Positions 49,771 to 56,792 of a stretch of 64,000 nt of DNA are shown one piece after another; within the stretch, counting starts at the first letter, position 1, and each line of letters begins with the position of its first letter. The stretch covers positions 308,397,402-308,461,401 of the forward strand of contig NC_085841.1 in NCBI RefSeq assembly GCF_035594765.1, written 5' to 3'. Both the position numbers and the translations under genes were made by a program. The notes under the pieces were generated by a model. That model did not search any database, had not been told where the DNA came from, and saw only the letters and a program-made list of their open reading frames with translations. Origin of the DNA: Anolis carolinensis. Lineage: Eukaryota.

Positions 49771-51969
49771 TCAACTTTGGCAGTTTTCTGTAGAATTACA
49801 TTTTGATTTGACTCCTGGGTGGACCCATTCCCTCAGTGTTGAACACCGATGCATTAACTGTGCCTTGAAAAATAGACCCAGGACAACAACAATAACAAGT
49901 GGAGAAAGAAAAAATATAAATCCAAATAAATTGTGTTTTCTGTTGTTCAAAGCACGATTCCATGGTGGAGGGGGGCCACTGTCAATGCTGCCTCCATAGC
50001 CTTTATTTTCACAGTTTGGAGGGTCCCAGCCATAATCACAATGACAATGTTTTTGAGTGTTGCATATTCCTCGATTATGACACTCTGTGACATTACAGTC
50101 ATATTTCAAGAGGGACACATCGAGGCACTGCCTGTCAATGCACATCCTGTCCATGCCACAAGGTGTGCCATCCCTCACAGCTCCGATATCAGCTATCCTC
50201 ATTCCACCATGATAGTCTGTACTCCAGCACTCTTTATTGCCAATGGATGATTGAATTATGGTGCTATGTTCCTCCAGAGAAGGTAACTTACGGATATTTT
50301 CACACTGGATTCGGCCACACAGGATATTATCAGAATGACATCTTGTGTAAGTGCCCTGGTTCAGGCCACAGTTACCAAAACGATCGCCTTCTGCATTTAA
50401 GTTTCTGAAGCAACTCTCAGAAGCAACTGTGGCTTTCTTTCCAAATATCATTTTACATTGCCTAACATGAGTAGTACAATTTCCATTATAACAGTATGCA
50501 TTTTCATCGCATGGGGCACCATCTTGTACATAAACATCTTTAGGACACCACTCAGAAGTACCATTGCAATACTCAGGAAGATCACAAATACTAGTATTAT
50601 CTCTACAAATAGATTGAGCTGGAGCATATTGACATTTTGCACAGCACAGTCCAAAAGCACAAATAGCACCTGAACGCAATCTACAGTTAGACTGACAACA
50701 TCGATCAGTTTCACAGTCGGCTTTGGAACCACAGTCACATTGTTCTCCGTTTTCTACTATTCTGTTTCCACAATATTTGACTTTATATATTTTATCATGA
50801 TCTGGTGGAATTAACAAACAATCTGTATTCCTTAGTTTGAAATAGTCACTGTAACTGCAATTGCTAAACATATCACTGTTTGAGTGAAATTCATCCATGA
50901 TACAAGAACGCCGATTACACCTACAGTAAATACCATCATGTCTCATTCCAAGAATATGTCCTAATTCATGGGCAAATGTGACAGAAAAATATAATAAAGT
51001 GTAATCCACATATGAAGCTACAGCAGATGCTCCTGTCTTATCACAAATTGTTCCTATAGGTGCTAGTCCTAGTGTCCTTCCAAAATATTTGTATACAAAT
51101 AAATGGGCTGCATCATTTTCTAGACGCTTACTAAGTGAATTTCTTCTCCATATGGCAAAAGAATTGAAAGTTTTCATTATGCTATCAGCAATATATATGA
51201 GATTTTTTTCTGTCCAGATTTCTAATCCAGCAACAGATACCTTAACAGAAAGTGGTTCATAAAATGCATCTGCAATATGGACAATATCCAGAACTTGTAT
51301 ACCAATAACAGTTTCATTTTTGTCAAATTTCAAATATCGTTCATGTTCTATCACAATTGCTACCTTCACATACCTGGTGTGTGCCCACCAGTCACTTCTG
51401 GAATTACTTTTGGTTAGTTCATTCTCTGTGTTTGGCATCATGCTCTCCTGGTGGTTTTGCTCTTCTTCTGTTACTCCACATTTCATTTTTACATCACCCT
51501 CCTTTTCTTCCAATCGATACACTACATGTTGAAAGTTAGGAGAGGCCTGGACAGGTTCAATCTCATAGGTGTTGTTTTCTAATTGAAATAGACCCCTAAG
51601 TCCCCCTGAACAAGTGCTGATGGCAGCCAAAGAAGAGAGTTTTCCCTTTATATAACCCTGGTAGAAACAGTTGTTCCGAATGAATGGATAATCCACCTGG
51701 AGTTCTCCTTGCTTAGAGTAGGTCAAGACCGGAATGTTTTTAGGAGCAAAGCTCTTCTTTTGGCGAAGGTGCACCATGTGACCCCTGCCTTCAATTTGCA
51801 AATGGTAGGTGACCTCTAGTGCCTCTTGTTGTCCATACCTTGGCATCACTTTCCTTGGAATGGTCACTTCATAGGAAGCATACCTAAAACCCTGTGGTGG
51901 TGTCTGACTTTCCATCTCATTGAGAACATTCCATAAAATCAGCAGCAGCTGGGAAGATTTATTCAACAT
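49771..51969 (-). CDS. ADAM20/ADAM21-like metalloproteinase, copy 4 (732 aa from the first ATG)
   Basis: HELGHILGMRHD, full domain set, intact ORF. The track start at 51990 is GTG; first ATG is 51969. Confidence 0.94.
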   Translation of the reverse strand: MLNKSSQLLLILWNVLNEMESQTPPQGFRYASYEVTIPRKVMPRYGQQEALEVTYHLQIEGRGHMVHLRQKKSFAPKNIPVLTYSKQGELQVDYPFIRNNCFYQGYIKGKLSSLAAISTCSGGLRGLFQLENNTYEIEPVQASPNFQHVVYRLEEKEGDVKMKCGVTEEEQNHQESMMPNTENELTKSNSRSDWWAHTRYVKVAIVIEHERYLKFDKNETVIGIQVLDIVHIADAFYEPLSVKVSVAGLEIWTEKNLIYIADSIMKTFNSFAIWRRNSLSKRLENDAAHLFVYKYFGRTLGLAPIGTICDKTGASAVASYVDYTLLYFSVTFAHELGHILGMRHDGIYCRCNRRSCIMDEFHSNSDMFSNCSYSDYFKLRNTDCLLIPPDHDKIYKVKYCGNRIVENGEQCDCGSKADCETDRCCQSNCRLRSGAICAFGLCCAKCQYAPAQSICRDNTSICDLPEYCNGTSEWCPKDVYVQDGAPCDENAYCYNGNCTTHVRQCKMIFGKKATVASESCFRNLNAEGDRFGNCGLNQGTYTRCHSDNILCGRIQCENIRKLPSLEEHSTIIQSSIGNKECWSTDYHGGMRIADIGAVRDGTPCGMDRMCIDRQCLDVSLLKYDCNVTECHNRGICNTQKHCHCDYGWDPPNCENKGYGGSIDSGPPPPWNRALNNRKHNLFGFIFFLSPLVIVVVLGLFFKAQLMHRCSTLREWVHPGVKSKCNSTENCQS

Positions 51970-52122
51970 GTTATCTGAGGAGAACTCCACGCTGCCTTCC
52001 TAGGGAGAACAGAGAGCCTTTTACATAGAATCATAGAATCATAGAATCATAGAATAGTAGAGTTGGAAGAGACCTCAAGGGCCATCTAGTCCAACCCCCC
52101 GCTAAGAAGCAGGAAATCGCAT

Positions 52123-54858
52123 TCAAAGCACCCCCGACAGATGGCCATCCAGCCTCTGCTTAAAAGCCTCCAAAGAAGGAGCCTCCACCACAGTCCGGGG
52201 GAGAGAGTTCCACTGCCGAACAGCCCTCACAGTGAGGAAGTTCTTCCTGATGTTCAGGTGGAATCTCCTTTCCTGTAGTTTGAAGCCATTGTTCCGTGTC
52301 CTAGTCTGCAGGGCAGCAGAAAATAAGCTTGCTCCCTCCTCCCTATGACTTCCCCTCACATATTTGTACATGGCTATCATGTCTCCTCTCAGCCTTCTCT
52401 TCTGCAGGCTAAACATGCCCAGCTCTTTAAGCCTCTCCTCATAGGGCTTGTTCTCCAGACCCTTAATCATTTTAGTTGCCCTCCTCTGGACGCTTTCCAG
52501 CTTGTCAGCATCTCCCTTCATCTGCGGTGCCCAAAACTGGACACAGTATTCCAGGTGTGGTCTGACCAAGGCAGAATAGAGGGGGAGCATGACTTCCCTG
52601 GATCTAGACGTTATTCCCCTATTGATGCAGGCCAAAATCCCATTGGCTTTTTTAGCTGCCGCGTCACATTGTAGGCTCATGTTTAACTTGTTGTCCACAA
52701 GGACTCCAAGATCTTTTTCGCACACACTGCTGTCAAGCCAGGCGTCCCCCATTCTGTATCTTTGATTTCCATTTTTTCTGCCGAAGTGAAGTATCTTGCA
52801 TTTGTCCCTGTTGAACTTCATTTTGTTAGTTTCGGCCCATCTCTCTAGTCTGTCAAGATCGTTTTGAATTCTGCTCCTGTCTTCTGGAGTGTTAGCTATC
52901 CCTCCGAGTTTGGTGTCATCTGCAAACTTGATGATCGTGCCTTCTAACCCTTCGTCTAAGTCGTTAATAAAGATGTTGAACAGAACCGGGCCCAGGACGG
53001 AGCCCTGCGGCACTCCACTTGTCACTTCTTTCCATGATGAAGACGACGCATTGGTGAGCACCCTTTGGGTTCGTTCGCTTAGCCAATTACAGATCCACCT
53101 AACCGTAGTTTTGTCTAGCCCACATTTTACTAGTTTGTTTGCCAGAAGGTCGTGGGGGACTTTGTCGAAGGCCTTACTGAAATCTAGATATGCTACATCC
53201 ACGGCATTCCCTGTATCGACCCAACTCGTAACTCTATCGAAAAAAGAGATCAGATTAGTCTGGCATGACTTGTTTTTGGTAAATCCGTGTTGACTATTAG
53301 CAATGACCGCATTTGTTTCTAAGTGTTTGCAGACCACTTCCTTAATGATCTTTTCCAGAATCTTGCCTGGTATTGATGTGAGGCTGACCGGACGGTAATT
53401 GTTTGGGTCGTTCTTTTTTCCCTTCTTGAAGATAGGGACCACATTCGCCCTCCTCCAATCTGCTGGGACTTCTCCTGTTCTCCAAGAACTCTCGAAGATG
53501 ATTGCCAGTGGTTCTGAAATAACTTCCGCTAGTTCCTTCAATACTCTTGGATGTAGCTGATCTGGCCCTGGGGACTTGAATTCGTTTAGAGTGGCCAGGT
53601 GTTCCTGGACAACTTGTTTCCCTATTTGGGGTTGGATTTCCCCCAATCCTTCGTCCATTCCATGTTGCTGAGGTTGAAGATGGCTTTCTTTTTGTGAGAA
53701 GACCGAGGCAAAGAAGGCATTAAGCAGTTCTGCCTTTTCCCTATCCCCTGTCACCATCACCCCATCTACTCCTTGCAGTGGCCCTATCGCCTCCTTTTTC
53801 TTCCTTTTTCTACCAACATAAGCAAAAAAACCTTTTTTGTTGTTTTTTATGTCCCTGGCAAGCCTGAGCTCATTTTGCGCTTTAGCCTTGCGAACCTTTT
53901 CCCTACAGGAGTTGGCTATACGTTTGAATTCTTCTTTGGTGATTTCTCCCCTTTTCCACTTCTTGTGCATGTCACTTTTGAGCTTTAGCTCAGTTAGAAG
54001 TTCTTTGGACATCCATTCTGGCTTCTTTGCACTTGTCTTATTTTTCTTCTTTGTTGGCACTGTTTGCATTTGCGCCTTGAGTATTTCACTTTTGAAAAAC
54101 TCCCATCCATCCTTAACTCCCTTGTTTTTTAATATCGGCGTCCATGGAATGCCGCTCAGTAATTCCTTCATTTTTTGGAAGTCAGCTCTCTTAAAGTCCA
54201 GAATGCGTGTTTGACTTGTCTTAGTTTCAGCATTCCTTTGTATTGCAAACTGCAGGAGCACATGGTCACTTGCCCCTAAGGATCCAACCACTTCAACTGT
54301 ATTGATCAGGTCTTCCACATTTGTTAAGATTAGATCAAGAGTTGCTGATCCCCTTGTTGCCTCTTCTACCTTCTGGACCATAAAATTATCTGCAAGGCAA
54401 GTGAGGAATTTGTTGGACTTTGTACTCTTGGCTGAGTTTGTTTTCCAGCAGATATCGGGATAATTGAAATCGCCCATGACTACTATATCTCTTCTTTGTG
54501 CCTGTTTGGTCAGCTGTTGACAGAAGGCTTCATCAAGTCCTTCATCCTGACTCGGAGGTCTGTAGTAGACACCCACGACAAGATCTTTTTGAGTCCCGGT
54601 TCCCTTGATTCTTATCCAGATGCTTTCAAGCTGGTTTCCCGGATTACAGTCTTGCATTTCTTCTGCAACGTAACTGTTTTTGACATATAAAGCTACTCCC
54701 CCTCCTCTCCCCTTTGTTCTATTTCTGTGAAAGAGGTTATAGCCCTCAATGGTTAAATTCCAGTGATGGGAGTCATCCCACCAGGTTTCAGTGATGCCTA
54801 TGACATCGTATGTGTGGTGCTGTGCTAGGAGTTGGAGTTCGTCTTGCTTATTTCCCAT
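52123..54858 (-). CDS. CR1 ORF2: APE endonuclease and reverse transcriptase (frame stays open upstream past the ORF1 stop)
   Basis: ITETW, YRPP, GDFN, SDH endonuclease motifs; PQGSVLGP and FADD RT motifs; no stops. Confidence 0.96.
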
Positions 54859-55049
54859 GCTCTGAGCATTAGTGTAAAGACATGTAAGCCCCTGTGACCT
54901 CCCCTCGAACTGTTTATTTGGGATTATTGTGCTCTCTGTACTTGGTCCTTGCTGTGTTTGTGCAGCCCTCCGTTTAGCCTTACGGCGGTTCCCTGTGGTC
55001 GTGGGTAATATAGTGTTCGCCAGGCTGTTGTTCCCCTCCCCCAGTGGAT

Positions 55050-56321
55050 TTAGTTTAAAGTGCGCCTGATGAGGTTTGTGAGTCTGTGTGCAAAAAGATG
55101 TTTTCCTACTTGTGTGAGATGCACCCCATCGCTTGCCAGTAGTCCATCCTCTTGGAAGAGTAGACCATGGTCAAGGAAGCCAAAATGCTCCTCTTGACAC
55201 CATTTTCTGAGCCAGTTATTGACCTGTACTATTTTTCCGGCCCTTGTAGAGCCATGTCCTACAACGGGGAGGAGGGATGAAAAGATCACATGTACATTAT
55301 ACAGTTTTAGCTTTGTTCCCAGAGCTCGAAAATCATTTGTGATCTTTTGAAAAGTATGCCTAGCGGTGTCATTGGTACCTACATGAATCAACATAAGGTG
55401 GGGAGGGTGATGGGGCTTTAGGAGCCTGCTGAGCCTCTGAGTGATATGGTGTATTTTTGCCCCCGGGAGGCAGCATGTTTCTCGAGCCATCCCATCCGGT
55501 CTGGAAATGATGGCTTCCGTTCCTCTAAGGAGGGAGTCACCTACTACCAAGACCTGTTTCCTTTGAGGATTGACAGGGTCCCTTTTGTGCAAGACAGTGT
55601 GTATGTCCCCTGAAGAGTGTTCCTGTTGAAGTGAATCATGTAGGTGTAAAGTGTTGTCCTCCTCCTCAACATCCCCAGTGCATTCATCAATGACAATCCA
55701 TTGAGATACATCCGAGAGCCCATTACTCTCCCAAGGATGTTCCTGTTGCTCCTGGTCTATGATTGGGGATGGAGCATTTGCATGATTACATAAGTGTGAC
55801 TGTGGTGATGCACTGTCCCCGTCAGGGCTATCCCCTGCGCATTGATCCAGGATGGTCCACTGAGTGGTATCTAAGAAACTGTGGTCCTCCACAAGATGTG
55901 TTTCCTGATTGTATGTTAATGATGTAAGAATTTCAAATCTGTTGTGTAAATGCAGCTGAGCAGAGGAGTTCTGCGGAGGCTGCCTGGTCCTGCGTCTCCT
56001 TCTATGGGTGACCTCCTTCCAAGCCTGAGGGTTGTCTACCTTTGAGTTGATCTCCCCATAAGGTTCCTGATCATGGTCTTGGTGGTGTTGGTGTGATGCA
56101 GGCTGCTGATCTACAGCAGCGTGTTGTGCAGTGTCCAAGAAGAGCTCGAGTGCCTGAATGTCCTTAAGGGTCTTAATACGGTGCTCGAGCTGTTGGATCC
56201 TCTGCTCCATCAGAGTCATCTGTTTGCATTTGGAGCAGATGTAGTTGTCTAGTTTTTGTGTGAAAAAGCGGAACATGCCACAGCTGGTGCATGTGATGGG
56301 AATGTTTTGCTTTTGTTGCAT
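55050..56321 (-). CDS. CR1 ORF1p: zinc finger, coiled coil, SGNH esterase
   Basis: CTSC..CSKC, heptad segment, GDSL block (VVGDSLL), GTND, DGVH. Confidence 0.93.
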
Positions 56322-56478: not shown

Positions 56479-56792
56479 TTCTGCGAGAACCAACTGCCCT
56501 TCTGGGATCAGGCTCTGGCAGAAACTCACACTGGCAAATAAAGCTTTCCCAGAAACTCAATTAACAGGGGACAATGCCTGCTGTCAATCAACTTAAGTAC
56601 CTGGCTCTCTTTCAACACAACAGTCACACAACAGTTAGACTTTGACCACAGGAGCCAAGCCCAAACTCAGTTTAAAATCTTAGCCAAATCTTAGCCAAAT
56701 CCTACCTGAAGCCAGGGAGCAAAAATGTCCTCCTGCTTCCTCTGCTTCTGCGAGAACCAACTGCCCTTCTGGGATCAGGCTCTGGCAGAAAC
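56479..56792 (-). repeat. 47-bp perfect direct repeat in the CR1 5' UTR (56479-56525 and 56746-56792)
   Basis: TTCTGCGAGAACCAACTGCCCTTCTGGGATCAGGCTCTGGCAGAAAC occurs twice. Confidence 0.95.

Follow-up and report, generated by a model that had tools for sequence, protein, structure and literature searches.

A conserved, in-phase slippery heptamer at the ORF1/ORF2 junction of CR1 retrotransposons and its probable role in -1 frameshifting

The mode of translation of the second open reading frame (ORF2) of long interspersed nuclear elements (LINEs) is an open question (PMC3894237). In L1 and SART1 (PMC3894237, PMC3708506, PMC1965478), a two-ORF RNA gives a low output of free ORF2 protein (ORF2p) by termination-reinitiation, across a spacer in L1 and at UAAUG in SART1. 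The Dictyostelium elements TRE5-A and TRE3-A, which are APE-type and lack long terminal repeats (non-LTR elements), are stated to depend on -1 frameshifting for their ORF2 (PMC5911963). In coronaviruses and arteriviruses, U_UUA_AAC or G_UUA_AAC sites have a polymerase downstream in the -1 frame and a pseudoknot 3-7 nucleotides (nt) downstream (PMC3835772, Table 1). Described here is the corresponding junction in a full-length CR1 LINE on the minus strand of a 64-kb stretch of Anolis carolinensis DNA (64,000 nt of contig NC_085841.1, referred to as the window; all features given below are on its minus strand). The element belongs to an abundant and young family of jumping genes. In birds CR1 is the predominant LINE, and it makes up 11.8% of the chicken genome (PMC11835228).

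The CR1 junction has the same heptamer as the viral sites, in the same phase, and its polymerase is likewise downstream in the -1 frame. It differs from them in that no stable downstream fold was found by the folding described below, the stop codon adjoins the heptamer and the site is carried by a non-LTR element. Like L1 and SART1, CR1 is a LINE with a two-ORF RNA and presumably low ORF2 output, but in this CR1 family the two frames overlap and no AUG is present at the junction. The Dictyostelium elements belong to another clade and their host to another kingdom. A preliminary description of this DNA had called UUUAAAC the coronavirus slip site and had assigned L1 ORF2 to reinitiation.

The slippery site between ORF1 and ORF2 of CR1 is genuine, conserved and in phase, and it combines correct phase, an open -1 frame, the absence of any ATG before the first strand of the endonuclease and conservation at the nucleotide level. 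As judged from sequence, the junction probably works as a programmed -1 frameshift that yields an ORF1-ORF2 fusion of 1399 amino acids (probability roughly 0.75). Most ribosomes would terminate at the ORF1 stop codon, and a minority would slip in tandem on UUA/AAC and proceed via a linker into the endonuclease and reverse transcriptase. Such slippage would fix a high ratio of ORF1p to ORF1p-ORF2p and would tether the enzyme to the ORF1 particle. Slippage might, more tentatively, be favored by a pause due to the adjacent stop codon together with a G-tract 10 nt on, perhaps by way of a bound protein and not a pseudoknot.

ORF1 terminates as ACT TTA AAC TAA. The heptamer TTTAAAC (55053..55059) consists of the final two codons and the preceding base, in X_XXY_YYZ phase, and is followed directly by the stop codon (55050..55052), which is TAA here and TAG or TGA in relatives; all three read as Leu in the -1 frame. 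It is the sole strictly in-phase slippery heptamer in the 424 codons of ORF1; ORF2 has 10 in 978 codons, which puts the chance rate at about 1% per codon. The ORF2 frame is -1 relative to that of ORF1 and is open from 55170 to 52123. This frame is free of ATG from 55170 to 54859, in the 120-nt overlap as well as in the 65 codons that extend from 55053 to 54858. The phase of the heptamer, the 65 open codons without ATG and the size of the fusion (423 + 976 = 1399 amino acids) had all been proposed in the preliminary description, and each is upheld by the sequence. Readthrough of the stop codon was considered and rejected, as ORF2 lies outside the zero frame.

The junction is a feature of the family. 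Forty of 40 scored matches (from 997 candidates) are identical to the window copy over 401 nt, and the exact heptamer is found in 1529 of 1554 family junctions located via their flanks. Because the junction is kept across family copies, the lack of a start codon in ORF2 is a family property and not a private mutation. Two young subfamilies split at the ORF1 stop codon (TAA versus TAG), with one linker residue altered and the heptamer constant.

Conservation extends beyond what the protein sequence accounts for. Relatives were gathered by peptide motifs situated away from the heptamer, which gave 47 metagenome loci and 55 loci from the Anolis genome itself; metagenome loci are termed bird-type here by their likeness to bird proteins. 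At most one weak locus was found in viral contigs and none in genome contigs. Forty-nine rows spanned the end of ORF1 and formed 23 clusters at 80% identity, with a median pairwise nucleotide identity of 0.51; some of the clustered copies are decayed, and the clusters are not entirely independent of one another. The terminal Leu codon is TTA in 21 of 23 clusters, whereas TTA accounts for 23 of 386 Leu codons at other positions. It is preceded by T in 22 of 23, although that base closes an Ala, Thr, Ser or Cys codon, as against 65 of 287 third bases of Ala and Thr codons, and the terminal Asn codon is AAC in 16 of 17 (40 of 100 elsewhere). One copy, L042, is misaligned at its final codons owing to an upstream deletion and carries the heptamer 10 nt further on; it was scored as a miss in the cluster counts and excluded from the tree. 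On a tree of 22 lizard and bird-type rows, where the median is five third-base changes per ORF1 codon, just two of 155 codons, numbers 164 and 165 in the heptamer, are without a third-base change, two 2-fold codons taken up below being set apart. Among the 21 six-fold codons, the terminal Leu alone never changes. The alignment of junctions across CR1 families that had been suggested earlier thus finds the heptamer conserved, and contrary to the possibility raised with it, that the heptamer is conserved no more than the amino acids demand, the synonymous positions are frozen at a median identity of 51%.

The position of the first ATG bears on where translation of ORF2 could begin. A model of the endonuclease, built from a 67-sequence alignment (predicted local distance difference test score, pLDDT, 88) and superseding a single-sequence prediction (pLDDT 37), has a predicted first beta-strand at residues 4-11 (54868..54891) that ends in the Asn of YTN. 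The first in-frame ATG (54856..54858) encodes residue 15, the Met of YTNAQSM, which opens the first helix. The best structural match of the model is the L1 endonuclease (E 1.6e-14). Its alignment with L1 begins at residue 3 of the model and residue 6 of L1 (Z 21.3, root-mean-square deviation 3.1, 209 aligned); that with ExoIII begins at residue 5 of the model and residue 1 of ExoIII (Z 20.5, root-mean-square deviation 2.8, 208 aligned). The first strand was also aligned to the N-termini of TRAS1 and R1Bm in the structure comparison; phmmer alignments against solved structures fell short of this strand. The offset of the aligned ranges suggests that the strand-terminal Asn (54870-54868) corresponds to L1 N14, and the N14A change is reported to abolish L1 endonuclease activity (PMC1965478). 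Initiation at 54858, which is the assumption of gene callers, has in its favor that the Met of YTNARSM is widely conserved and that many database proteins begin there. On the predicted structure, however, such a start would remove the first strand together with the Asn equivalent to N14, which relatives retain upstream of that Met, and it can be given almost no weight. The earlier placing of the N-terminal strand upstream of the ATG is therefore consistent with the model.

Proteins extend the reach of the ORF1 terminus to other hosts. Of 91 ORF1 relatives that reach the end of the profile, 68 stop at LN, and those named include lizards, a snake, turtles and frogs. Among 164 ORF1 proteins, 71 end in LN; immediately before LN, K, Q, M and W do not occur, and E occurs in two of the 71. 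No codon for any of these five residues ends in T, and together they occupy 15% of the preceding 22 positions. One database protein (P0061) corresponds to the last part of an ORF1 labelled Ranitomeya when this is read in the -1 frame (one consistent window of 875), and it continues into the endonuclease. The two readings together force GCG TTA AAY, which suggests that a frog-type CR1 family carries G_UUA_AAC or G_UUA_AAU in place of U_UUA_AAC, with the caveat that one of three such ORF1 proteins failed to fit over 23 positions. GUUAAAC is the slip site of equine arteritis virus (PMC3835772, Table 1), so that the G_UUA_AAC variant would be common to viral sites and a frog CR1. In P0061 and a second protein, P0052, Gly-x-Gly occurs at the same linker position in the frog-type family. 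No clean ORF1-ORF2 fusion was found among the longer ORF1 proteins of the database, where four matches are gene-model chimeras; this result is weak either way.

Between the shift site and the endonuclease lies an ATG-free linker in the -1 frame (54877..55053), which runs into the endonuclease and contains two near-cognate candidates, CTG 55044 and CTG 55023. Within the family of the window copy, 17 of 19 rows have a stop-free 183 nt from heptamer to YTN, and the other two have deletions. Stop-free, in-phase linkers outside the family measure 111, 153, 177, 183 and 264 nt; the lizard families have 183 and 177 nt. Each of the five bird-type contigs whose ORF1 and endonuclease matches are unbroken is in -1 phase and stop-free, with a linker of 111, 153 or 264 nt. 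Ten of 29 rows have the -1 frame closed one or two codons upstream of the site, and entry into the ORF2 frame must therefore occur at or after the heptamer. Older lizard copies (L109, L118, L136) are without about 9 nt of spacer, such that a purine run follows the stop codon directly with the phase retained; these may represent a subfamily with other spacing.

Exactly 10 nt after the heptamer is a G-tract, GGGGGAGGGG (55033..55042), which encodes Gly-Glu-Gly in the ORF2 frame and is a candidate stimulator. Its spacing was followed in a 29-row column profile; anchoring on the heptamer makes this profile circular for the seven heptamer columns, and it served for spacing only; one row (L039) was mis-anchored. 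A run of at least four G starts exactly 10 nt past the heptamer in 20 of 29 rows; the preliminary description had reported a G-rich tract within about 10 nt. The usual spacer before a stimulatory structure is 5-9 nt (PMC7618472). Linker codon 7, where it encodes Gly, is GGG in 23 of 23 rows, and the tract may be kept partly as the Gly-x-Gly of ORF2. [quoted passage not shown] The same text differs from CR1 in its particulars: the PRRSV motif is C-rich and binds PCBP with nsp1beta, and the slip site is GG_GUU_UUU, whereas the CR1 motif is G-rich and a candidate only.

Several observations weigh against frameshifting at this junction. Conservation at the DNA level comes from two host groups only, with other taxa represented by proteins, and the 2-fold codons F123 and H128 are also unchanged on the tree, though partly selected by the search pattern. 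Outside the family of the window copy, 20 copies have both ends of the linker, and just nine of them keep the -1 phase (seven stop-free); of the 11 that do not, 10 show other decay and one (L057) is a fragment. The G-tract is at another distance in three of 29 rows and absent in six. With a local folding method that does not treat pseudoknots, no stimulatory fold was found downstream in the window copy (z -0.78 to +0.42 in five windows), as the preliminary description had conceded, and no stable hairpin is shared by 10 copies, the window copy and nine relatives (z -1.56 to +1.09). A G-quadruplex is predicted in two of these 10 copies and not in that of the window.

The observations that remain on this side concern termination-reinitiation, the main rival. 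Ribosomes would restart near the ORF1 stop codon, at an AUG in bird-type copies or at near-cognate CTG 55044 or 55023, to give a free ORF2p, and the heptamer and G-tract would constitute a reinitiation signal. In four of the five bird-type copies that are intact, an ATG lies in frame 2 nt past the stop codon (linker codon 5), copy L048 reads TAATG, and other copies have ATG or NTG at linker codon 6. The family of the window copy has CTG 55044, and CTG 55023 in good context (A at -3, G at +4). SART1 employs UAAUG (PMC3894237, section 5), and any sense codon is reported to be tolerated at the L1 ORF2 start (PMC1965478). No start codon is common to the families, however: linker codons 5 and 6 include CCA, CAG, TGT, TAT, TCG and AAG, CTG 55023 is CTT in sister families, and the family of the window copy has no AUG overlapping or adjoining the ORF1 stop codon, the first in-frame ATG being at 54858. 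TGGGA, the calicivirus-type reinitiation motif, is present upstream in six of 27 copies and absent in the window copy. Reinitiation needs neither a constant -1 phase nor a frozen slippery heptamer, and it is considered unlikely, with a chance of about one in six. The frameshift reading of the preliminary description is thus supported by the comparison in its frozen heptamer, phase and late ATG; reinitiation at an ATG just past the stop codon or at a CTG had gone unweighed there.

Two further explanations have been considered. The heptamer and G-tract might be kept for another RNA-level function (packaging, an ORF1p site or internal ribosome entry), with the start of ORF2 independent of slippage. 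That no stimulatory fold was found downstream is consistent with this, and an internal ribosome entry site with a non-AUG start has been proposed for LINE ORF2 generally (PMC3894237). Yet the conserved bases are exactly those of an in-phase X_XXY_YYZ site, the sole variant suggested by the proteins is also a known slip site and the linker is no more structured than shuffled sequences, so that this explanation is improbable. Still less probable is production of ORF2 from a spliced RNA in which an upstream AUG is brought to an acceptor located within the junction or the linker. The stop codon reads TAG|G in many relatives, an acceptor-like sequence, but is TAA in the window copy and in many others and TGA in some families. 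No joint skipping the junction was seen between 54000 and 56479 in junction-covering contigs of four probable RNA runs, a weak negative in that contigs drop rare forms and the RNA status of the runs is a guess. One contig, from run X3, leaves the element at window position 55065, 6 nt upstream of the heptamer; it probably represents a 5'-truncated copy within another transcript.

If the frameshift reading is correct, CR1 would have a retrovirus-like strategy, unlike L1, and databases would truncate CR1 ORF2p within the endonuclease. Tests for intact elements and retrotransposition constructs would have to retain the junction, and host factors that act on frameshifting could restrict CR1. A wider proposal is that vertebrate CR1 has made a Gag-Pol-like fusion by -1 frameshift over hundreds of millions of years, free of RNA structure and driven by the adjacent stop codon and a protein-binding G-tract at a fixed 10 nt, as a G-rich counterpart of the arterivirus signal. 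This is put forward tentatively and is more doubtful than frameshifting at the junction itself. In the searchable full-text literature, including PMC11835228 and PMC1965478, a CR1 frameshift is not described; older CR1 papers are outside that scope, and an earlier suggestion may exist. The word frameshift is absent from PMC3894237, PMC3708506, PMC4120745 and PMC8665684, and a survey of CR1 (PMC13343379) is free of that word and also of slippery, overlap, start codon, translation and reinitiation.

The element is otherwise an ordinary CR1. ORF1 (55050..56321) encodes 423 amino acids followed by TAA, with an N-terminal Cys-rich motif and a C-terminal SGNH/GDSL esterase (PF13472, E 1.8e-10). Its frame is open from stop to stop over 56381-55050, with the first ATG at 56321, and UniRef proteins labelled Anolis carolinensis are identical to it over the part searched. 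ORF2 from the shift site (52123..55053) is unbroken over 976 amino acids and encodes endonuclease and reverse transcriptase (PF03372, PF00078). The copy ends in a 3' terminal octamer repeat, (ATTCTATG)x4 (52024..52055), a microsatellite in place of poly(A); such a repeat is the typical, defining motif of CR1. The esterase ORF1 and the APE endonuclease and reverse transcriptase of ORF2 agree with the definition of canonical vertebrate CR1 (PMC13343379).

In the Anolis genome, the pattern GCTTTAAACTAR gave 955 matches compared with 296 for a control. The count was dropped as biased and uninformative: none of 30 fetched loci encodes ORF1 or endonuclease. Seven of 30 loci with GCTTTAAACTAG (L083, L085, L086, L088, L092, L095 and L098) share a CCAGATTATCT-like repeat context unrelated to CR1 ORF1. 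Upstream of ORF1, RNA-like contigs loop back by 267 nt at window positions 56479-56745, consistent with a 5' leader of 267-nt monomers; the window copy has about one such unit and a 47-nt repeat. On the other side, about 55 nt past the CR1 3' repeat and on the same strand, begins an unbroken 742-codon frame of the ADAM metalloprotease type (49771-51999), with propeptide, reprolysin, disintegrin and cysteine-rich regions, into which CR1 read-through could enter.

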